Shown in pieces: positions 39,449 through 50,365 of a stretch of 54,861 nucleotides of DNA (positions within the stretch are counted from its first letter, which is position 1; each line of letters starts with the position of its first letter). A program made the translations under genes and the position numbers. The notes beneath the pieces are model-generated. The model was not told the origin of the DNA, searched no databases, and worked only from the letters and a program-made list of their open reading frames with translations. Source of the DNA: an uncultured Enterobacterales bacterium (GTDB lineage Bacteria; Myxococcota_A; UBA796; CAJQPC01); NCBI GenBank assembly GCA_964344945.1, contig CAYFPX010000004.1:1-54861 (forward strand). The letters run 5' to 3'.

Positions 39449-41212
39449 CTACTCCGCCAGCAGATCCTCGATCACCGTCCTGATCTCCGCCAGGTCGCTC
39501 TCCACGCTCAGGAAGCGCACGATCCCCTCTTCGTCCACGACCACGTGCACCGGGTACGGCCCGGTCCGGGTGCCCGCCTCGCTCAGGTCGTAGGCGTCCA
39601 GGACCGACCGGTCCGGGTCCAGCAGCACCGGGATCTCCAGCCCGTACTCCTGGGCGAACCAGGTCACCTCGCCCTTGGAGTCGGGGCTCGCGAGGAAGAA
39701 CTGCACCGGCTCGCCGGCGAGGGGCTCGACCAGGGCCTGGGGGATGTCCGGAGCCTCCAGACTGCAGATCTGTCAGCCGGGAGAGAACCAGTTGATGTAG
39801 CTGATCACCCCGTGCAGGTCGTCGTGGGTCACGACGCTGTTCACCGCGCTCGGCGGGGTGAAGGACTCCAGGGTGAACTCCGGGTGGGGCTGGCCGATGC
39901 TGGACTCGGCGAGGCTCAGCTGGAGCTCGCCGGTGGGCTCGTCGGGGTCGTTGCTGGTCCAGGGCACGGTGGCGTCGGTGGGCAGGCTCTCGGGCTTGAC
40001 CCGGAGGTCTTCGCGCTCGCCGGGAGGCAGGACCAGCTCCGGGGGCTCGACCGTCCAGCCCTCGGTCTGCTCGAAGGTCATCACCAGGTCCTCGGCCCCG
40101 CCGTTGAGCACGATGACCGTCTTGGCGCTGGTGTCGTCGGCCGCCCACCACCACTCGCTGCGCAGGTCCACCTCGGCCCCGGCCACGAAGTCCGTGCGCT
40201 CCAGCAGCGTGATCTGCTTCCACTCGGCCACCAGGACCTTGCCGCCGTCCAGGCTGCCCAGGGCCATCGCCGACTCGGCGCTGGGCTCGTGGCCGACCAT
40301 CACCGGCTCGTCGTCACCGAGCCAGGCGAGCATGGTCTCCGACCAGGCCGCCGCCCACAGGTAGTCGCCGTCCAGAGACACGCCGTAGACCCCGCCGGGG
40401 CTCGGCAGCTCACCCCGCAGGACCAGGGTGTCGTCGACCACCTGGAGCACCGCGACCCCTTCGGAGCCCTGGGCCACAGCGACGTGGGTGCCGTCGAAGT
40501 CCAGGTCCCAGCCGGTCACCCCCAGGGCGAGGCGGTCCAGCTCGACCGGAGCGGTGGGCTCGGACCAGTCGATCAGCACCACTTCGTGGGCGTCGGTGAT
40601 GACCGCGCGGCCCCCGACCAGGCCCGCCCCGACGGCCCAGCTCGCCGGGAAGATCGCCTGCACGTCCAGGTCGGCGTCGAGCAGGTAGGCGCCGTCGTCG
40701 TGGGCCGACACCAGGACCAGGCCATCTTCACAGTCCAGGTCCTCGGACCCGCTGGACCAGGGCTGGGTCTTGCGGGCGACGTAGGGGTCGTCGGGGTCGG
40801 AGACGTCCATCTTCCAGAGCTCGTGGATCTTGGTGGTGACCCAGGCGGTGTCGATGGTCGGGTCCCACTCGACGTGGAAGCCGTTGTGCTCGGGGGCCTC
40901 GCTGACGATCTCGCCGGTGGTGGTGTCCACGACCACGTTGCCGTTGTTGGCCACCACCAGGGCGCGATCGGCGCTGATCTGGGCGGCGTCGAGGGTCTCC
41001 CAGTGGCCCTTGGTGTGGGTGGTGTTCAGGGTGGCGATGGGGTCGCCGCGGGTGAAGCCGTCGGGGAGCTGGCTCTCCGTGTCCGGGGGTGTGCCGGTGT
41101 CGCCGGTGTCCGCGCTCGTCGCCGAGTCCGTGGTCCCAGGCCGGGTGCCGCTCGGTGGCGGGCTCGGCAGGTCCGAGGCGGTGCAGGCCAGCAGCAGGAG
41201 GACAGGGCTCAC
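39449..41212 (-). CDS. LVIVD-repeat beta-propeller lipoprotein fused to a TlpA/redoxin domain with in-frame TGA at the CxxC position (candidate selenoprotein, or nonsense-disrupted gene)
   Basis: Track ORFs 39773..41212 and 39449..39706 share one frame, separated by TGA and 22 sense codons. Read-through gives GQPHPEFTLESF...LHGVISYINWFSPG-U-QIC-SLEAPDI...FFLAS...EIPVLLDPD. The N-terminus VSPVLLLLAC is followed by LVIVD-like repeats. Confidence 0.6.
39746..39762 (-). promoter_or_regulatory. SECIS-like hairpin 10 nt downstream of the in-frame UGA
   Basis: The mRNA reads GUCUGGA-GGC-UCCGGAC: 7 bp including one G.U that would be a C.A mismatch on the other strand. The GG-containing apical loop starts ~17 nt after UGA. 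Confidence 0.35.
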
Positions 41213-41243: not shown

Positions 41244-41576
41244 TCACCGGGGGGGCCGCGGGGCCTGCACCGTGGAGTCCAGGAGGGCGCCGTCCGGGCC
41301 GTAGCGGTGGATCTCCCGCCGACCGCCGACCGCGGTGGACTCGATCCTGACCACCGGGATGCGCACGCCCTCGCGCGTCACCCAGGCGATGCCCTCGGGC
41401 ACCTCCGAGGCCGGGCGCGCCTCGGAGGTTCCGGCGTCGAGGTCGACGAAGGTGATGGTGCCGGGGTGCTCCCCGGGCGCCGAGGCCGCGGGAGGCGGAT
41501 CGGGGGGTGGCGACGCCGGCGGATCGGCCGACCGGGCGGGACAGGCCAGCAGGACCAGCAGCAGCGCGGGGCTCAC
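41244..41576 (-). CDS. Small lipoprotein, paralogue of 41573..41815
   Basis: GTG start overlaps the upstream stop (GTGA). VSPALLLVLLAC lipobox. Shares the HPGTITFVD...VPExIAW...YGxDGALLxSTVQ core with its neighbour. Confidence 0.55.
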   Translation of the reverse strand: MSPALLLVLLACPARSADPPASPPPDPPPAASAPGEHPGTITFVDLDAGTSEARPASEVPEGIAWVTREGVRIPVVRIESTAVGGRREIHRYGPDGALLDSTVQAPRPPR

Positions 41577-41815
41577 CGCCGGGGCCGGTGCTGGACCGTC
41601 GACGAGAGCAGGGCGCCGTCGGCCCCGTAGCTGCGGATGAGCCGCTGCTCCCCGCGCATCGAGGCGACGACGCGGGTGACGGGGGTGGCGGTGCCGTCGG
41701 GACCCGTGCTCCAGGCGATGGTCTCGGGCACGTCGCTGACGCTGCGCTCCCGGGAGCCTCCGTCGGGATCGACGAAGGTGATCGTGCCGGGGTGTGCGGT
41801 GCGGGTGTCGGACAT
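41573..41815 (-). CDS. Small protein without signal peptide, paralogue of 41244..41576
   Basis: ATG 41815 lies 6 nt after the upstream stop. 80 aa with the same conserved core as the downstream lipoprotein. Confidence 0.5.
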   Translation of the reverse strand: MSDTRTAHPGTITFVDPDGGSRERSVSDVPETIAWSTGPDGTATPVTRVVASMRGEQRLIRSYGADGALLSSTVQHRPRR

Positions 41816-41821
41816 CGGGAC

Positions 41822-42088
41822 CTACTTGAAGTGGGGGTCGAGGATCTTGAACCGCTCGGGCACGATCGCGCGGTACTCCTCGTGGGACGGGGCGCCCTTG
41901 GTGGTGTTGTAGACCTGGACCGTCTCGGCGACGTCTTCGGCGATCGCTGCGTCGGCGTAGCCGGAGACCGAGGCCTGGTCCTTGTCCATCGCGGCCTTCC
42001 AGCTGACCCAGCCGCCCTTGGTCTCGTCTTCGCCCCAGGTCTGGTAGGACCAGGTGTGGCCGGACTCGTGGACCATCGTGCCGGTCAT
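41822..42088 (-). CDS. HExxH zincin C-terminal fragment (probably the frameshifted C-terminus of 42085..43050)
   Basis: MTGTMVHESGHTW...AIAEDVAE... The HExxH lies only 7 residues from this ATG, too close for a standalone zincin fold. The same frame stays open upstream (TTSSGSTPSQDY). Confidence 0.5.
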   Translation of the reverse strand: MTGTMVHESGHTWSYQTWGEDETKGGWVSWKAAMDKDQASVSGYADAAIAEDVAETVQVYNTTKGAPSHEEYRAIVPERFKILDPHFK

Positions 42089-43050
42089 GTAGTCCTGGCT
42101 CGGGGTCGACCCGGAACTGGTGGTCCTTCGGGGGTCAGGCTGGCGACGGGCTCGTCGACGAGCTCCGGCTTGGCCTTGTCGCTGCTGAACAGGCCCTCCA
42201 GCGCCTTGGCCTGGTCCTCGGCGGAGGTACCGGACCAGCCGCCGTCGGAGGTGAGCCGCTCGAGCTCGGTGCGGGCAGCGGCGGACAGATCGTTGGTCTC
42301 GCCGCCGATCAGGGCTTCGAGCTGGCCCTGGGTGCCGGCCTCGACCTCGTCCCAGCCGTCGGTGGTCTTGAGGGTGGTCAGGCCGAGCTCGGCGTCGACG
42401 GGCCGCAGGCCGGTCAGGACCTCGGTGTTGGTCGGGAGGTCCCCCCAGGTGTCGTCCCAGATCAGGCTCACGACGGGCTGTCGGCCAGACGAGGTCTCCT
42501 CGGCCGCGAGCACCACGCTCGAGGCGGCGAAGGTCTGGCCCCAGCTCTCCACCAGGGTCTTCACCTCGCCGCGGCGGGTCCCGGCGCTGGCCTCGGTGGC
42601 GCCCGCGCCCCGGGCGAGCACGACGTAGGGCACGCACAGCTCGCCGGTGTCCCCGGCGGTGGGCAGGTCCGAGGCCGACGGGCCCGCTTCCTCGGCGGCC
42701 TCCTCGACCACGGGGCCGGTGGAGGTGTCCGGGGACACGGGGGTGGTGGGGATCACGAAGACCTGGCCGGGGTGGATCAGGTTGGGGTCGCCGCCGATCT
42801 CCTCTTTGTTCAAGGCGTAGATCTCGCGCCACCGCGGCCCGCTGCCCAGGTAGTCCTCGGCCAGCTGCCAGAAGGTGTCGCCGCGCTCGACCGTGTGCTT
42901 GAAGCCCTCCTCGGCGCCCGGCCTGGGCGAGCCGAGACCGCGCTGCTCCTGCATGGCGGCGTTGCCGGGGCCGCCCTGGTTGGCCGTCGCGCCCTCGGCC
43001 ATGGGCTTGCCGTGAGCGTGGTCGTGGACCTGCTCGTGACCCTGGCCCAA
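42085..43050 (-). CDS. LysM domain protein (N-terminal part of a probable LysM-zincin)
   Basis: TTG 43050 preceded by GAGGAG (alternative ATG 43002). LysM: HTVERGDTFWQLAEDYLGSGPRWREIYALNKEEIGGDPNLIHPGQVFVIP. Confidence 0.7.
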   Translation of the reverse strand: MGQGHEQVHDHAHGKPMAEGATANQGGPGNAAMQEQRGLGSPRPGAEEGFKHTVERGDTFWQLAEDYLGSGPRWREIYALNKEEIGGDPNLIHPGQVFVIPTTPVSPDTSTGPVVEEAAEEAGPSASDLPTAGDTGELCVPYVVLARGAGATEASAGTRRGEVKTLVESWGQTFAASSVVLAAEETSSGRQPVVSLIWDDTWGDLPTNTEVLTGLRPVDAELGLTTLKTTDGWDEVEAGTQGQLEALIGGETNDLSAAARTELERLTSDGGWSGTSAEDQAKALEGLFSSDKAKPELVDEPVASLTPEGPPVPGRPRARTT

Positions 43051-43170: not shown

Positions 43171-44298
43171 ATGACCTCCTGGGCCCTGCTCTTCGCCCTC
43201 GGCTGCGACCCCTCCACCAACACCGCCGACGTCACCCAGAGCGACCTCGACGCCCTGCTCGATCGCGTCGAGGCCCTGGAGGCCGACAACGCCCTGCTGC
43301 GGGAGGAGCTCGCCCAGGTAGCGACGGCCGAGGCCTTGGACGCCGTGGGCGAGCGCGTCCAGGCGCTGGAGGACGCCGACCTGGTCAGCGAGGCCTGGGT
43401 GCTGGACCAGGACTACGTCGCGGGCGACGACCTGGACACCGCCCTCGCCGAGCAGGACGCCGAGGACCAGGCGCTGTGGGCCGAGACGGAGGTGCTGGCC
43501 CAGGACATCGCGGCGCTACAGGCCGCGGACACCGCCACCAGCGAGAGCCTGGCCTCCCTCGAGGCGGCGGTCACCACCCTCCAGGAGACCGACGCCAGCC
43601 ACGAGCTCACCCTGGCCGAGCACGAGGACGGCCTGCAGGAGCTCGAAGAGGCCGATGCCGCCCTGCAGGTCGAGGTGGAGACCGTCGCGGCCGACCTGGA
43701 CACGACGGAGCTCGACCTCAGCGGGCTCGAGGACGACGTCGGCGGGCTGGAGTCCGAGCTCGATGTGGTCTCGGAGGACGTCGGTGCGCTGGAGACGGAG
43801 CTCCAGGTCGTCTCCGAGGACGTCGCCGGGCTGGAGACGAGCCTGGCCGAGCTCATCGCCGACGTGGACGACCTCGACTCCGCGGTCCAGGCCCTGGACG
43901 TCGCCCTCGCCCTGGTGGACCTGTCCCTCACCTCGCTGCTGACCTCGGTGGACGAGCTCTGGGACGCGGTGGGCGACGCGGCTGACCTGATGTCCTTCGT
44001 CGAGGTGGACACCGGGGCGTCGAAGGTCGTGTTCACCGGGGCCAACGTGTTTGTCCAGGACGGCTCGGGCGGTACCGCCAGCGCCACCGGCAAGGGCAAC
44101 CTGATCGTCGGCTACAGCGAGTCCGACGGCTCACAGACCCGCAGTGGCTCCCACAACCTCGTGGTCGGCGATCTGCACAGCTGGACCAGCTACGGCGGGT
44201 TCGTGGCCGGCGAGGACAACGCCGTCGAGGCGCCCTACGGCGCGGTGAGCGGTGGCACCGGGGAGACGGTCAGCACCGACCACGGCCTGGCGCCCTGA
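43171..44298 (+). CDS. Acidic coiled-coil lipoprotein with tail-fibre/adhesin-head-like C-terminus
   Basis: MTSWALLFALGC lipobox. ~260 aa of heptad-like L/E/D/A sequence. C-terminus carries repeated G-x-N-L-(I/V)-VG (KGNLIVGYSE, SHNLVVGDLH). Confidence 0.7.
   Translation: MTSWALLFALGCDPSTNTADVTQSDLDALLDRVEALEADNALLREELAQVATAEALDAVGERVQALEDADLVSEAWVLDQDYVAGDDLDTALAEQDAEDQALWAETEVLAQDIAALQAADTATSESLASLEAAVTTLQETDASHELTLAEHEDGLQELEEADAALQVEVETVAADLDTTELDLSGLEDDVGGLESELDVVSEDVGALETELQVVSEDVAGLETSLAELIADVDDLDSAVQALDVALALVDLSLTSLLTSVDELWDAVGDAADLMSFVEVDTGASKVVFTGANVFVQDGSGGTASATGKGNLIVGYSESDGSQTRSGSHNLVVGDLHSWTSYGGFVAGEDNAVEAPYGAVSGGTGETVSTDHGLAP
43756..43839 (+). repeat. Two tandem 42-bp in-frame repeats inside the coiled-coil gene
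   Basis: gagctcgatgtggtctcggaggacgtcggtgcgctggagacg followed by gagctccaggtcgtctccgaggacgtcgccgggctggagacg (ELDVVSEDVGALET / ELQVVSEDVAGLET). Confidence 0.6.
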
Positions 44299-44336
44299 AC
44301 CGGCACATTCAGCGGGGCCGAGTCGGGGGGTCACCG

Positions 44337-44502
44337 CACTCAGAGGGCCCCAGTTGGGGGATCTGCACCGGAGTACATGCCCGGTCGACACTCAGCCGGC
44401 CTGAGTTGGGTGATGGCGACCGCTTCGAGCCGCCGAACCGTTGGTCTCCCCCAACTCGGGTCCCTTGAGTGCAGGGTCCCCCCAGCTCGGACCCCCTGAG
44501 TG
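44337..44502. repeat. REP cluster, family B (two direct + two inverted ~25-bp units)
   Basis: Direct units: cactcagagggccccagttggggga (44337-44361) and cactcagccggcctgagttgggtga (44389-44413). Inverted units: tcccccaactcgggtcccttgagtg (44447-44471) and tccccccagctcggaccccctgagtg (44477-44502). Confidence 0.65.
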
Positions 44503-45122
44503 TCGAAGATCGGTCGACAGGTCGTCACCCCGAGGCCGCTCGATCGGCGCCGGGCCTGTGGACAGTGCCCGGCATCGGCCGTGCATCGGCGCCGGGCAAG
44601 CTGCGCCGGAACGAGCGCTACATCCACCTGAACCCCTGCCGGGCCCGGCTGATCGACGACCCGCTCGCCTGGCCCTGGTCGACTCACCGGGATCGGGTGG
44701 GCCTCGCCTGGCCTTGCGCCGTGCCCACTCGCACGGATCCGGCGGCCTTCCACCGCTACGTGAGTGCCGACCCGAGCGTGGCCGTCGACGGCACCCTCCT
44801 TCCCTGTCGGCTGGACGGCGGGACCGCGGAGCAGGTCTACGCCGCCGTCTCCGCGCTCACCCGAAGCCCCGCCGAGCGACTCCAGCTGCGCGGCCCGGCC
44901 CGCACCCTCTGGATCCAGTCCCTGCGGCTGCTCACCGAGCTCACCCAGCCAGCCATCGCCCGGGAGGTCGGGGTCTGCCTCTCCACGGTCCAGCGCCTTC
45001 CGCCGCGCTGGACCCCGGAGATCCGCCTGGTCCGCCGGGTGCTCGGCGATCGCCGCTTCCCAGCTCTGGACGACGGCGCCGCGGCCTGGGCCCGGCGCTC
45101 CCTCTGGAGCCCGAGGGCTTAG
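44469..45122 (+). pseudogene. Internally deleted RAYT-like (Y1/HUH) transposase copy lacking the HUH region
   Basis: From ...GKLRRNERYIHLNPCRARLIDDPLAWPWSTHRDRVGL... to its end it aligns with residues ~130-301 of the track ORF 46338..47243. The N-terminal ~95 aa, including the MPDHLHLL motif, are missing, although the 5' flank motif CCCCCTGAGTGTCGA is retained. Confidence 0.6.
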
Positions 45123-45129
45123 GCTCCGC

Positions 45130-46296
45130 CTACTTGGCGGTGGCTTCGGCGGCGGCGGGCGCGTCGTAGCGGGCCCACTTCTTGGCGGCCTCCCACCCGA
45201 TCGGCTGGTCCTTGCTGCGGCGCAGGGTCAGCCGGGCGGTGTCGAAGAAGCCCTCGAGGGTGCGGAACATGCTGCTGGTGTCGATCCAGCACGCCCGCAT
45301 GCAGCCCTCGCAGGAGCCGGCCTCCATCATGCGCTGGCGCTCGTACTCCGTGGACCAGAAGTACTCTTCGAAGCCCGGGTCGAGGATGTGGGTGTAGGAG
45401 TGGCTGGTCCGGTGGCAGATGGTCATCTGGCCGTTCGGGGACACGCTGAAGTAGAGCCGGCCGGCGTCGCAGCCGTCGGGGGGGAAGCGGCCGGTCTTCA
45501 GGTAGGTCCGGCTCGACGCCAGGTACGGGGTCGAGCTCAGGATCGGGTAGCCCTCTTTCTTCATGCGGATGAGCGTGTCGTAGCAGCGGTCGATCCGAGC
45601 GGCGACATCGCCTGTCGGGCCGGCGACCAGGCCCATCTCCGGGCGGTGGCGGATGAACCGGGCCTCCCAGTTGCGCACGCCGTCCTTGGGGGAGCTCAGG
45701 AGCTCGATGGGCAGGAAGGAGACGTGGAAGCCGATGGCCTTGGCGAAGCGGACGATGTCCGGGCACTCCTCCAGGTTCAGGTTGCTGACCACGCAGTTGA
45801 TGACGGGCATGCCGTCGGTGCCGTGGAGCTGCTCGCCGAGCCAGGCCATGTTCTTGACGGCGCCGGTCCAGGAGCCCTCCTGCTCGCAGATGTAGTCGAA
45901 GCGCTCCGGGTAGAGACTGTCCAAGGAGATCGAGAAGTTGCGGACGCCGTGGTCCAGGCACTTCTGCAGGCGGTCCCGGGGGACGTTGACCGCGTTGGTG
46001 AGCAGGCGGACGTTGATGCCGGCCTCGACGAAGAGCCGGCCGACCTCCTCGATGTCGTCACGGGCGAAGGGCTCGCCGCCGCCGATGCTCACCTGGACCA
46101 CGCCGAGGCGGTTGAAGAGCTGGGCCATCTGCTCGATCTCGGGCAGCTCGAGCTCTTCCTTGCGGTTCCCGTAGCGCCAGATCCCGCACATCTTGCAGGT
46201 CAGGTCGCAGCGGTGGGTGATGCCGTAGTGCGCGTAGACCGGGACCCTGCGCGTGAGGAAGGCCTTGCCGATGCGGGCGTAGTGCTGGGGCTTCAA
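45130..46296 (-). CDS. Radical SAM protein with SPASM/twitch-like C-terminal Cys motifs
   Basis: TTG 46296 is the only plausible start. CxxxCxxC: HRCDLTCKMCG. GGGEPF motif. C-terminal C-x12-G-x4-C (CDAGRLYFSVSPNGQMTIC) and CxxCxxxC (CEGCMRAC). Confidence 0.8.
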   Translation of the reverse strand: MKPQHYARIGKAFLTRRVPVYAHYGITHRCDLTCKMCGIWRYGNRKEELELPEIEQMAQLFNRLGVVQVSIGGGEPFARDDIEEVGRLFVEAGINVRLLTNAVNVPRDRLQKCLDHGVRNFSISLDSLYPERFDYICEQEGSWTGAVKNMAWLGEQLHGTDGMPVINCVVSNLNLEECPDIVRFAKAIGFHVSFLPIELLSSPKDGVRNWEARFIRHRPEMGLVAGPTGDVAARIDRCYDTLIRMKKEGYPILSSTPYLASSRTYLKTGRFPPDGCDAGRLYFSVSPNGQMTICHRTSHSYTHILDPGFEEYFWSTEYERQRMMEAGSCEGCMRACWIDTSSMFRTLEGFFDTARLTLRRSKDQPIGWEAAKKWARYDAPAAAEATAK

Positions 46297-46337
46297 GGGC
46301 GGTCCGTCGCCAGAGGAGGGGCGAAGTATAGCGGCGC

Positions 46338-47144
46338 TCAGGTGCGGTCGCGGTAGGCGAACCAGCGGGAGGTCCGGCGCAGGTCCCCCGGCTCCAAGGC
46401 CGGGAAGCGGTCGTCGCCGAGCACCCTGGAGACCAGGCGGGTGGCCCGGGTGTGCTTGAGGGGGACCCGGTGGACGGTGGCTCGCGCCAGCTGCAGCTCC
46501 GCGCCGATCTCGCGGCCCGAGAGAGTGGTGAACTGGCGCAGGCTCCGGAGCGCCAGGGAGCGCACCGGGCCCCGGCGGGTCAGGGCCTCTCGGGGGCTCC
46601 GGGTGAGGGCCAGGACGGCGTCGAGCACCGTGTCCCCGTCGGCCCCGTCGGTGCCGACAGGCAGGTCGGTGCCCCGCAGGTTCACCGACGGGTCGGCGCT
46701 CACGTACTGGTGGTAGGCCAGCGGGTCGGGATCCGCCGGGCGGGCGGCCGGCAGCGCCAGACCGACCCGATCCCGGTGGGTCGACCAGGGCCAGGCGAGC
46801 GGGTCGCCGACCAGCCCTGCGCGGCAGGGGTTGAGGTGGATGTAGCGCTCGGAGCGGCGGAGCTTCGTTCGGCCCTTGACCGGCTCGGGCGGGCCCGGGC
46901 GCCGCCAGAGGGAGCCCCGCACCCCCATGCGGTTGTTGCGCCACCGGGCGTAGCTGCGCAGGGCGATGCCGAGCGCAGCGCCCACGTCGCGGGCGTGCAG
47001 CAGGTGGAGGTGGTCCGGCATCAGGCACAGGGCCAGCGGGTCGGGGACCTCCCGCAGCACCGTGTCCCACAGGACGCGTGCCTCCAGGTGGGAGAGAAAG
47101 GCCAGGCGACTCGGCCGCGAGCGGACAGCATGGTGGTGTGGCAT
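46338..47144 (-). CDS. RAYT-like Y1 (HUH) transposase with C-terminal HTH (DnaA-C-like) region
   Basis: ATG 47144 (MPHHHAVRSRPSRLAF...). HUH motif MPDHLHLL; Tyr motif RSERYIHLNPCRAGL; C-terminal SLRQFTTLSGREIGAELQLARATVHR. REP-like sequence lies upstream. Confidence 0.7.
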   Translation of the reverse strand: MPHHHAVRSRPSRLAFLSHLEARVLWDTVLREVPDPLALCLMPDHLHLLHARDVGAALGIALRSYARWRNNRMGVRGSLWRRPGPPEPVKGRTKLRRSERYIHLNPCRAGLVGDPLAWPWSTHRDRVGLALPAARPADPDPLAYHQYVSADPSVNLRGTDLPVGTDGADGDTVLDAVLALTRSPREALTRRGPVRSLALRSLRQFTTLSGREIGAELQLARATVHRVPLKHTRATRLVSRVLGDDRFPALEPGDLRRTSRWFAYRDRT

Positions 47145-47218
47145 GGCCGGCGGCCCTGGCAAGGGGCATGCCCGCGGCACTGGGCCCATCCGCGAGGCAC
47201 CGGGTGTCGAAATCTCGA

Positions 47219-47249
47219 CACTCAGGGGGTTCGAGTGCGACACCCCCTG
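47219..47249. repeat. REP-B-like unit / hairpin upstream of the intact RAYT-like gene
   Basis: cactcagggggttcgagtgcgacaccccctg: cagggggt (47223-47230) pairs with accccctg (47242-47249). The first 17 nt match the family-B unit. Confidence 0.45.
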
Positions 47250-47431
47250 CAGTCAGAGGCCCTGGACATCACACCTGGTGGGTCCGGGCGCCTCCGGAGG
47301 GTATCGGGTGTGACGCTCGGCCCCCTTGTCTGCTGGTCTCGCAGCCGTTGGGCGCTGGGGTGTGACGTTCGATACCGCTGTCTGCGACGGTGTTGCGTTC
47401 GGACCCTCTGACTGCCCGCTACCATGCCGCC

Positions 47432-49612
47432 ATGCTCACCCTGCTCCTCCCCTTGCTCGCCTGCACCGACAAGGACACCTCCGCTTCGGGCGACACCGGT
47501 CTGACCGCGGACTGCGAGCCCGCGGTCGAGACCTGCAATGGCCTGGACGACGACTGCGACGGCGAGGTGGACGAAGAGGCCGACGACGCGGTCACGCTGT
47601 ACGCCGATGTCGACGGCGACGGCTTCGGCGACGACACCCTGGGGGTGCTCGCCTGTGCCGATGAGCCGGGACTGGTCTCGGAGGGGGGAGACTGCGACGA
47701 CACCGACGCCGCCGTGAACCCGGACGCCGCCGAGGTCTGCGACGGCGAGGACAACGACTGCGACGACCTGGTCGACGACGAGGACGACAGCCTGGACACC
47801 AGCAGCATCACGCCGACCTACCCGGACGCAGACGGCGACGGCTTCGGCGACGCGAAGAGCGAGACCTTGGTCTGCTCCCCGCCCCCGGACCACCTGACCG
47901 ACGGCAGTGACTGCGACGACGGCGACCCCTGGGTCTTCCCCGGCGCCCACGAGGTCTGCGACGGCAAGAAGACCGACTGCGAAGACCGGGACTGGTTCAG
48001 CGACGCCGGGCTCGCGAGCTTCTACAGCGACAGCGCCCTGGCCTGGACCGACCTGACCGACACCTTCGCCGCCGGCACCGAGGCCAGCCCGGTCTCCTGG
48101 ACGGCGGACGACGGCGGCGCCCTGTCCCTGTGCGAAGGCACCTGGCACCTGGACCTGAGCATCGAGCACACCATCCAGGTGGTCGGTGTCGACGGGGCCG
48201 AGGCCGTGGTGCTCAGCGGCGGCGACAGCCACCCCATCGTGACCATCGACGACCCCAGCGCCAGCGCCGTGCTCACCGCGCTGACCCTGGAGCGGGGCCT
48301 GGCCACGCACCTGCTCACCGTCGGCGACGACACCCGCACGGCCGGCGGCGCGGTCTGGTGCAGCGGCTCGGACCTGACCCTGGACCGCGTGATCCTGCAG
48401 GACAACACGTCCACCGGCTACGGCGGCGCCGTCGCCGCCCAGGGCTGCACCCTGTCGCTGACCGAAGTCACCGCCGAGGGCAACAGCGGCTACCACGGGG
48501 GCGCCTTCGCCTCCTTCGAGAGCGGCTTCACCCTCACCGGCGGGGCCCTGTCCAGCAACCACGCCGACGCCGAAGGCGGCGCGATCTACCTGGGCGGCGG
48601 GGTGACGTTCACGACCGACGGCGCCACCCTGGCCGACAACACGGCGGCCGAGGGAGGCGCCGTGCGGGGCGAGGAGCGGGGCCGGGCCGGCAGCAACACC
48701 ATCACCCTGGTGGACACCACCTTCTCGGGCAACCTGGCCAATGTGGGTGGGGCGGTCTCGGTGGACGACGGCGGCGAGCTGAGCTGCGAAGGCGGCACCT
48801 TCGAGGGCAACATCGCCTACGACGTGGGCGGCGCCATGGCCCTGGACATCCGGGGAGCCACGATCACGGGCACCACCTTCAGCGGCAACGAGGCCCTCGA
48901 CGACGGCGGCGCCCTGAGCCTGCAGATGGACGTCGTGGCGATCTCGGAGTGCGCGTTCACGGACAACCTGGGGGAGGACGGCGGCGCCATCGACACCGAG
49001 GCGAGCCGCAACGAGATCAGCAGCACCACGTTCACCGGCAACAGCGCCAGCCGCAGTGGCGGTGCCATCGCCATGCGCGACGCCGACGCCGGTCTCGACG
49101 GCACCGACCTGACCTTCGACGGCAACAGCTGCGAGCGCGACGGGGGGGCGATCTACGCCAGCGACGGCGCCCAGGTCTCCCTGGAGTCCAGCGCCCTGCA
49201 GGGCAACAGCGCGGGCCGCAGCGGTGGTGGGATCGCCGCCGATGTCGCCGACGTGGCCCTCCAGGACGCCACCCTGTCTGCGAACACCGCGGGCGGCAGC
49301 CGCCACGGGGGCGCCATCTGGGTCGAGAACGGCGAGCTGACCTGCGACGCGGTCTCCTTCGACGGTCACTCCGCCACCTACGGCGGTGCCCTCGCCCTCG
49401 AGCTCGCCCGGGGCTCCGTCGCCTCCTCGACCTTCACCGACAACAGCGCCGACGAGGGCGGGGCCGCCTGGCTGAGCCTGTCCGAGCTCGACGTGAGCGA
49501 CTCCGACTTCAGCGGCAACAGCCCCCACGACACCTACGTGAGCGACGTCACCCAGGCCACGAGCTGGGGCAAGGGGGCGAGCTTCAGCTGCACGATCGCG
49601 GGGTGCGAGTAG
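47432..49612 (+). CDS. Lipoprotein with MopE-like Cys/Asp 'putative metal-binding motif' repeats and Pmp-like parallel beta-helix repeats
   Basis: MLTLLLPLLAC lipobox. CNGLDDDCDGEVDE, DVDGDGFGD, GGDCDDTDAAVNPDAAEVCDGEDNDCDD. Followed by many GGA(I/V)-type repeats (GGAVW, GGAIYL, GGAMAL, GGAIDT...). Confidence 0.75.
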   Translation: MLTLLLPLLACTDKDTSASGDTGLTADCEPAVETCNGLDDDCDGEVDEEADDAVTLYADVDGDGFGDDTLGVLACADEPGLVSEGGDCDDTDAAVNPDAAEVCDGEDNDCDDLVDDEDDSLDTSSITPTYPDADGDGFGDAKSETLVCSPPPDHLTDGSDCDDGDPWVFPGAHEVCDGKKTDCEDRDWFSDAGLASFYSDSALAWTDLTDTFAAGTEASPVSWTADDGGALSLCEGTWHLDLSIEHTIQVVGVDGAEAVVLSGGDSHPIVTIDDPSASAVLTALTLERGLATHLLTVGDDTRTAGGAVWCSGSDLTLDRVILQDNTSTGYGGAVAAQGCTLSLTEVTAEGNSGYHGGAFASFESGFTLTGGALSSNHADAEGGAIYLGGGVTFTTDGATLADNTAAEGGAVRGEERGRAGSNTITLVDTTFSGNLANVGGAVSVDDGGELSCEGGTFEGNIAYDVGGAMALDIRGATITGTTFSGNEALDDGGALSLQMDVVAISECAFTDNLGEDGGAIDTEASRNEISSTTFTGNSASRSGGAIAMRDADAGLDGTDLTFDGNSCERDGGAIYASDGAQVSLESSALQGNSAGRSGGGIAADVADVALQDATLSANTAGGSRHGGAIWVENGELTCDAVSFDGHSATYGGALALELARGSVASSTFTDNSADEGGAAWLSLSELDVSDSDFSGNSPHDTYVSDVTQATSWGKGASFSCTIAGCE

Positions 49613-49867: not shown

Positions 49868-50365
49868 TCACCGATCGCGGGGGAACAGCTGCCCCTGCGG
49901 CGCCTCGTGGGCCAGCAGCCACCGCTTGTGGTCCAGCCCCGGCCCGTACCCCACCAGCCCGTCGGTCCCGACCACCCGGTGGCACGGGATCACCAGCGGC
50001 AGCGGGTTCGCCCCGTTCGCGGCGCCCACCGCCCGGCTCGCGGCCGGGTTGCCCAGGGCGTGGGCGATGTCGCCGTAGGTCCGGGTCTGCCCGGCGGGGA
50101 TGACCCGCACCCGGGCCCACACCGCCTGCTGGAACGGGGTGCCCGGCACCGCCACCGGCAGTCTCCGCAGCGCGCCCAGATCCCCCTGGAAGTAGTCCTT
50201 CAGCGCCCGCAGGGACTTGTGGGGATCCCCGAGCTCCCGCTCCGCCGGCAGGCGCTTCTCCACCCGGTCGACCCCCTCACCGAAGGCCAGGCCGCACAGG
50301 CCCACGTCGGTGGACCACACGGTGATCTCACCGAGGGGCGAGTTCGTGCGGACCTCGTAGATCAT
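49868..50365 (-). CDS. ogt: Methylated-DNA--protein-cysteine methyltransferase
   Basis: ATG 50365 overlaps the DegT stop (ATGA). ...TYGDIAHALGNPAASRAVGAANGANPLPLVIPCHRVV (PCHR active site). Confidence 0.85.
   Translation of the reverse strand: MIYEVRTNSPLGEITVWSTDVGLCGLAFGEGVDRVEKRLPAERELGDPHKSLRALKDYFQGDLGALRRLPVAVPGTPFQQAVWARVRVIPAGQTRTYGDIAHALGNPAASRAVGAANGANPLPLVIPCHRVVGTDGLVGYGPGLDHKRWLLAHEAPQGQLFPRDR

Follow-up and report, generated by a model that had tools for sequence, protein, structure and literature searches.

Two RAYT-like genes with a shared 5' motif, very probably acquired separately, flank a resident radical SAM gene

Introduction

Subclass 2.1 of the TnpA_REP proteins is distinguished by a C-terminal Bac_DnaA_C, HTH_23 or HTH_28 domain and by the absence of repetitive extragenic palindromes (REPs) nearby (Quentin et al. 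2018, PMC6006769), and it is equated by the same authors with the TIRYTs/TIRtrons of Di Nocera et al. 2013 (PMC3733652). In Koribacter versatilis this subclass has been reported to occur as multiple differing copies, each provided with inverted repeats of its own; the published terminal inverted repeats (TIRs) of TIRYTs are found on both sides of the gene, and many of them contain GGGGWSAS. Here we analyse a stretch of 54,861 nt (contig CAYFPX010000004.1, positions 1 to 54,861, hereafter the window) in which a radical SAM (rSAM) gene lies between two RAYT-like genes that face each other, the left one truncated and the right one intact. An earlier sequence-only reading of this 2.74-kb interval had offered two explanations, either a RAYT duplicated in inverted orientation around a gene that was captured, the whole resembling a composite transposon, or two independent insertions beside the same gene.

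Results and Discussion

Overview of the interval and of the loci compared

The 2.74-kb interval is very probably a resident rSAM gene flanked by two separately acquired RAYT-like genes and not a mobile unit. The second of the two earlier explanations is essentially right, with the refinement that the right copy was inherited here from an ancestor shared with a sister species and the left copy lies at the edge of a lineage-specific segment. The arrangement itself was found as it had been described (Table 1). The 15-mer CCCCCTGAGTGTCGA at 44492-44506 has its exact reverse complement at 47215-47229; the rSAM gene is separated by 7 nt and 41 nt from the 3' ends of the RAYT-like genes; the right copy carries both catalytic motifs and its start agrees with that of its homologs; and the left copy, ending at 45122 on the plus strand, has no HUH region and matches residues 94-253 of the intact protein with 57-60% amino acid identity.

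Two surveys were compared with the window, one of 80 metagenome loci found with the rSAM protein (57-91% identity) and one of 80 genome loci that were retrieved with the RAYT-like family. A sister species is represented by loci L018 (metagenome-assembled genome (MAG) CAZFLE01), L098 and L005, and a third relative by locus L001, whose rSAM protein is about 90% identical to that of the window. The MAGs CAZFLE01 and CAZCVP01 are recorded under the title 'uncultured Enterobacterales', and others under Cognaticolwellia or Bifidobacterium breve; the record taxonomy looks unreliable, because loci with such titles carry high-GC, Myxococcota-type genes.

The radical SAM gene is resident

The protein encoded by the rSAM gene contains the CX3CX2C cluster motif (CDLTCKMC) and matches PF04055 above the gathering threshold (73.7 bits vs a cut-off of 29.5), which confirms the assignment made from the sequence. 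No NCBIfam equivalog reached its cut-off for this protein, the best being MoaA (80.6 vs 284). There are 397 homologs at E<=1e-10, and among the 120 matches listed the identity is 64-91% and most sources are Myxococcota-type MAGs.

The rSAM gene is syntenic in L001, L005 and L018. In L001 the flank rpe-fmt-def-DegT-ogt-PMP/MopE is collinear with window positions 53615-47441, and the distance from the PMP gene to the rSAM gene is just 74 nt, without a RAYT-like gene. On a wider scale, a DegT aminotransferase gene lies upstream of the rSAM gene on the same strand in 63 of the 80 rSAM loci; a RAYT-like gene adjoins it in one of these 80, that of the sister species, and an rSAM gene is nearby in only one of the 80 RAYT-like loci.

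The composition of the gene was compared with that of the others among 14 window genes. Its GC content at third codon positions (GC3), 0.977, is the highest value of the set. The rSAM protein is indeed richer in K/N/I/F/Y than its immediate neighbours, as had been noticed earlier (0.206 vs 0.05-0.10); these neighbours are low-complexity, secreted-type proteins, and the DegT aminotransferase encoded at 50362-51615 has a value of 0.194. Because the aminotransferase is similar and the GC3 of the rSAM gene is the highest, the excess reflects the type of protein and not a foreign origin. A foreign origin by composition was considered as a candidate explanation and is ruled out by GC3 and by the other enzymes of the window. 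The rSAM gene is a resident, vertically inherited gene and not cargo.

The right copy was present in an ancestor shared with the sister species

The gene order of L018, like that of L098 and L005, equals that of the window: the PMP gene, the upstream repeat region, the RAYT-like gene (68% amino acid identity) and the rSAM gene (91.5%), with 80.6% nucleotide identity across the 2055 nt of the RAYT and rSAM block. The ortholog of the right copy occupies the equivalent site in both L018 and L098. Because the sister species is collinear there, the right copy must have stood at this site in the common ancestor; by parsimony it was gained in the lineage of the window and the sister species, as compared with L001 and 78 more distant loci. 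The right unit, consisting of the gene and its upstream region, measures about 1.1 kb and is placed between the rSAM gene and the divergent PMP gene. The repeat region reaches to about 16 nt before the start of the PMP gene (47432), and the promoter of the latter must therefore lie inside the palindromic region. No target-site duplication is recognisable at the borders of the right-copy insertion at the present divergence.

The left copy belongs to another sublineage

In L018 and L005, 16 nt separate the stop codon of the rSAM gene from the ortholog of the window gene at 39773-41212, whereas the window has 3.9 kb there. The left copy is located at the edge of this segment, which abuts the rSAM stop codon. 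Its deletion comprises codons 1-93, including the HUH motif, and begins at about the position of the start codon, with the upstream region kept; because the HUH motif is lost, the left copy cannot act as a nuclease. The proteins nearest to it are P0124 (67.6% identity), P0125 (66.9%), P0127 (62.9%) and P0123 (60.6%), each of which belongs to another assembly than the window, as against 60% for the right copy. As the right copy is thus surpassed in similarity by four proteins of other assemblies, the left copy did not arise from it by duplication; it belongs to a separate sublineage of the RAYT-like family. The DNA complementarity between the two copies is 71-84%.

The left open reading frame (ORF) extends over 175 codons, and an in-frame GTG at 44565 could serve as the start of a protein of about 185 amino acids. 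All of the 23 invariant family residues within the covered part are retained, and the ratio of nonsynonymous to synonymous substitution rates (dN/dS) against P0124 is 0.37, compared with 0.40-0.41 for pairs of intact genes, which means that either the deletion is recent or the remnant is still in use. The left copy may accordingly be regarded as an expressed HUH-less derivative, made of the Tyr helix and the HTH domain, that would bind DNA and regulate or inhibit the family. We hold this for a minor though real possibility: the open frame, the entire upstream region and the constraint on the covered part all fit it, but a recent deletion fits the same data and dS is near saturation, the C-terminal tail is altered (a 5-residue gap, with the GDLR...W..YR motif lost), and other N-terminally deleted members with an equal boundary were not seen.

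In addition to the left copy with its palindromic region, the 3.9-kb segment contains a gene for a LysM-like protein (42085-43050), one for a coiled-coil protein (43171-44298) and, in tandem, two small ORFs that are paralogs with 56% amino acid identity (41244-41576 and 41573-41815). No homologs of the segment genes were found among the retrieved loci, no synteny was found between the surroundings of the left copy and L011, the locus of P0124, and no target-site duplication is recognisable at the segment borders at the present divergence.

The inverted repeat is the conserved 5' motif of the family

The perfect 15-bp repeat can be extended to 21 nt with 95% complementarity (44486-44506 / 47215-47235). 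Of 300 dinucleotide shuffles of positions 44000-47700, 8 (2.7%) contained a perfect inverted repeat of 15 nt or more whose arms were separated by 200 nt or more, so that the length of the repeat by itself is only modestly unusual. It is judged real because its position upstream of both copies matches and because it is conserved in other assemblies. In an alignment of the 150-nt regions that precede the start codon in five loci (window right copy, window left copy, L011, L018 and L014, the last of which carries P0125), the sequence CTGA[GC]TGTCGA is invariant in 5/5, at 70-110 nt upstream of the start codon, and a short hairpin of the form TGTCGA-loop-TCGACA follows. The 15-mer is the 5' motif of the family and is present also at solitary copies. 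As the two copies of the window face each other and share this motif, the inverted repeat of 15 bp (21 bp) arises automatically. Elsewhere in the 55-kb window the 15-mer and the upstream units have chance-level matches only, and no further copies of them were found in 61 kb of the sister MAG.

Upstream of the genes we also found long imperfect palindromes. Besides those of the two window copies (Table 1), such structures are present in L011 (arms of 58 nt, 78% complementarity, 85-nt spacer, fold z -4.6), L015 (56 nt, 80%, 75 nt, -8.8) and L018 (43 nt, 74%, 91 nt, -3.5), where fold z refers to single-strand DNA folding, with values of +2.0 to -1.8 in three control regions of the window. The geometry is retained among paralogs and the arm sequences are unrelated. 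A crude scan of 51 genome loci revealed an upstream inverted repeat at z>4 in 13, about ten of which have structures of 190-245 nt that end 85-135 nt before the start codon. No downstream partner arm was detected for the window right copy, L011, L015 or L018. This long palindrome, apparently private to each gene and located upstream only, is the one unusual point of the family. At 3553-3760 of L018 a run of about 100 N lies between perfect 55-nt direct repeats of the distal palindrome arm; this stretch was either masked or left as a gap in the assembly of a tandemly repeated unit.

The proximal palindrome is a putative binding site of the family's own protein, which the HTH domain may use as an operator or the HUH domain as a hairpin substrate, and the large palindrome of about 200 nt would be the family's counterpart of a REPIN or a TIR. 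It is tempting to extend these assignments to a one-sided variant of the RAYT/TIRYT type, in which a conserved proximal hairpin and a private palindrome of about 200 nt, both located upstream only, would co-evolve with the paralog to which they belong and serve as HUH hairpin substrate or as HTH duplex operator, and in which the HUH-less left copy is an expressed modulator; we offer this as a tentative idea, to which we give somewhat less weight than to the expression of the left copy as such.

The RAYT-like family compared with known systems

The RAYT-like protein consists of a TnpA_REP-like Y1 core with HUH and Tyr motifs and of a C-terminal helix-turn-helix (HTH) domain like the DNA-binding domain of DnaA (DnaA-DBD). 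Conservation of the motifs MPDHLHLL and RYIHLNP extends over 31 full-length homologs. When the two RAYT-like ORFs were scanned with Pfam, weak HTH_23 matches were the only result, even at E<=10; PF01797 (Y1_Tnp) was not reported for the window protein and reached 0.085 at best, in 2 of 32 members, while HTH_23 was matched by 11 of the 32, the best value being 2.7e-5. The NCBIfam model NF047646 (REP_Tyr_transpos) matched at E 1.1e-9 with 38.4 bits, which is below its curated cut-off of 80. When a profile of the 32 members was compared with the PDB, Escherichia coli TnpA_REP (4er8) was found at 2.2e-6 in an alignment spanning the HUH and Tyr motifs. The AlphaFold (AF2) model of the right copy has a predicted local distance difference test (pLDDT) value of 95 and a predicted template modelling (pTM) score of 0.91; the best Foldseek match of this model is again 4er8 (E 1.5e-5, probability 1.0), and its C-terminal domain matches the DnaA DNA-binding domain 3pvp (probability 0.99).

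Family members occur in marine and soil Myxococcota-type MAGs, where they adjoin unrelated genes. The earlier premise that RAYTs are single-copy fails for this family, since seven loci were found in one MAG, CAZFLE01; there are four in CAZHIK01, four in JAZAMN01 and two in the window. The paralogs are divergent, with 46-68% identity to the query. A tblastn search against plasmids gave just distant matches of 30-37% identity, confined to the N-terminal half, and a full-length relative was not among them.

By its domain architecture the family resembles TnpA_REP subclass 2.1/TIRYT. The Y1 core is nearest to TnpA_REP, the extra length is accounted for by the C-terminal HTH (HTH_23, DnaA-DBD fold), no typical high-copy REP family was seen nearby, and multiple differing copies per genome have inverted repeats of their own. 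Unlike in TIRYTs, the long inverted repeat has both of its arms upstream, and 1-72 nt lie between the 3' end and the neighbouring gene; GGGGWSAS is not enriched in the window (31 observed vs 51 expected). With the classical RAYT or REPtron of E. coli (TnpA_REP, PDB 4ER8; Nunvar 2010, Bertels & Rainey 2011), which is the best match of the family in sequence and structure, it has in common the Tyr motif YIHLNP..AGLV, palindromic DNA adjoining the gene, and vertical inheritance at a fixed site, as seen in the right copy common to the sister species. However, classical RAYTs are typically found as one copy per type per genome, whereas this family has many copies and an extra HTH domain, scores below the NCBIfam cut-off (38 vs 80 bits) and has no Pfam Y1_Tnp match, and its palindromes appear private to each locus, no others having been found in the 55-kb window or the 61 kb of the sister MAG. 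The layout of a REPtron, with REPs inverted on both flanks, was not found either in the window right copy, L011, L015 or L018; the palindromic units of the family are upstream only and the 3' ends abut the neighbouring genes.

Two separate acquisitions and the alternatives

We propose that the rSAM gene acquired its two RAYT-like neighbours by separate histories: the right copy with its upstream region was present in the ancestor common to the window and the sister species, and the left copy, a member of another sublineage that has lost codons 1-93, lies at the edge of the 3.9-kb segment. Several points weigh against this proposal. That two family members lie less than 3 kb apart and both point with their 3' ends to the rSAM gene may perhaps not be pure chance; the adjacency may result from chance, from local targeting, or from a rearrangement by which the 3.9-kb segment was introduced. 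The left copy shows no signs of decay, as judged from its 23 invariant residues and its dN/dS of 0.37, and may be functional instead of a relic. The direction of the right-copy gain follows from parsimony, the alternative being a loss in L001; the roles of the motif and the palindrome are putative, being read from sequence; and the coverage of the host genome ends with the 55 kb of the window.

Of the other explanations for the interval, one is that the right copy was duplicated long ago, locally and in inverted orientation, across the rSAM gene, and that long divergence and an N-terminal deletion on the left followed; this appears improbable. The copies are adjacent and share exactly the most conserved 5' motif, as such an event would predict, but P0124, P0125, P0127 and P0123 are nearer to the left copy, so that the duplication would have to predate those lineages; the identity ranking moreover points to a position of the left copy outside the clade formed by the right copy and its ortholog, and the sister species shares the right copy without having the left one, its next gene starting 16 nt past the rSAM stop.

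A functional association is to be given marginally less credit still. It supposes that the HTH domain of the RAYT-like protein regulates or serves rSAM, and that the right copy may be co-transcribed with the rSAM gene, 41 nt away on the same strand. The same-strand adjacency of the two is conserved in the sister species, and the stop of the right copy directly precedes the conserved GCTATACT box upstream of the rSAM gene; however, the association is confined to a single clade (1/80 rSAM loci, 1/80 RAYT-like loci), and other family members stand beside unrelated genes.

The composite-transposon-like unit, in which the inverted RAYT-like copies and the 15-bp repeat would have captured the rSAM gene and move it as cargo, fits the geometry (inverted transposase-like copies around a gene, a perfect inverted repeat at the outer edges, short gaps) and is nevertheless refuted, to the point of having practically no chance of being right, because the rSAM gene is at the syntenic site without a RAYT in L001 and has a host-like composition (GC3 0.977), which is what had been named beforehand as the finding that would dispose of it, and also because in L018/L005 the rSAM gene stands at this site with the left copy missing, the DegT-rSAM order recurs in 63/80 loci, the copies are 57-60% identical instead of near-identical and one is without HUH, the repeat is a family motif found at solitary copies too, and the search for further copies of the whole block found none in the 80 RAYT-like and 80 rSAM loci, i.e. 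the block is not seen as a unit in 160 related loci. Two separately acquired RAYT-like genes beside a resident rSAM gene remain the preferred explanation.

Surroundings of the radical SAM gene

The pairing of a DegT/DnrJ/EryC1 aminotransferase with rSAM, considered in the window (50362-51615 and 45130-46296) and in loci L099-L177 and seen in 63 of 80 metagenome loci, points to two genes that were functionally paired ancestrally and may have served in the modification of sugars or cofactors. Within the clade of the window, ogt and the PMP/MopE lipoprotein gene now separate the DegT gene from the rSAM gene. The PMP/MopE lipoprotein evolves far more rapidly than the product of the adjacent rSAM gene: among the window, L001 and L018 it has only 50-60% amino acid identity, vs 90-91.5% for the rSAM protein.

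All three relatives (window 46297-46345; L001 5960-5975; L005 70-85) have conserved a box, CCGCTATACT, which precedes the rSAM start by about 30 nt and is probably a -10 element. In the window the RAYT-like stop codon is 3 nt before CCGCTATACT, so that any -35 element would sit inside the RAYT-like coding sequence. A sigma-70 promoter scan of 44200-47500 gave zero sites, and two terminator-like sites in the scan of the same region are both within coding sequence.

Table 1. Coordinates and characteristics of the features around the rSAM gene in the window.
Feature	Position	Strand	Characteristics
Radical SAM gene (388 aa, TTG start, CDLTCKMC)	45130-46296	-	PF04055, GC3, synteny in L001/L005/L018
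Intact RAYT-like right copy (268 aa)	46338-47144	-	MPDHLHLL + RYIHLNP; C-terminal DnaA-DBD-like HTH
Gene-proximal hairpin of right copy	47204-47221	-	GTGTCGA-AATC-TCGACAC on + strand; overlaps right 15-bp arm 47215-47229
Upstream repeat region of right copy	47215-47415	-	Three direct 28-nt units (47306-47333, 47358-47385, 47388-47415) and inverted units (47249-47275, 47223-47246); palindrome arms 27 nt, 74% complementarity, spacer 113 nt; DNA fold z = -2.1
Truncated RAYT-like left copy	44598-45122	+	Residues 94-253 (Tyr motif + HTH domain)
Upstream imperfect palindrome and proximal hairpin of left copy	44305-44519	+	Arms 44305-44361 / 44447-44503 (57 nt, 79% complementarity, 85-nt spacer); proximal hairpin TGTCGA-N7-TCGACA at 44501-44519; includes left 15-bp arm 44492-44506; fold z = -4.9
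Lineage-specific 3.9-kb segment	41247-45129	.	Present in window, absent from L018/L005
PMP-repeat/MopE-motif lipoprotein gene	47432-49612	+	Conserved right neighbour of rSAM gene in L001, L018

Conclusions

The pattern around the rSAM gene is real and has an ordinary explanation; it adds a further RAYT-like gene of an already known type, without cargo. A tempting but wrong reading, that of a RAYT carrying cargo, is thus removed, and the origin of the pattern is shown, in that any two facing copies of a multi-copy family with a conserved 5' motif will form a perfect inverted repeat. Of lesser weight, though perhaps worth examining separately, is the arrangement of the palindromes on the upstream side only. 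Beyond this locus, a poorly annotated family is documented, with a TnpA_REP-like core, a DnaA-like HTH domain and a consistent architecture of upstream palindromes, and this family may merit a dedicated comparative study of TIRYT-like elements.

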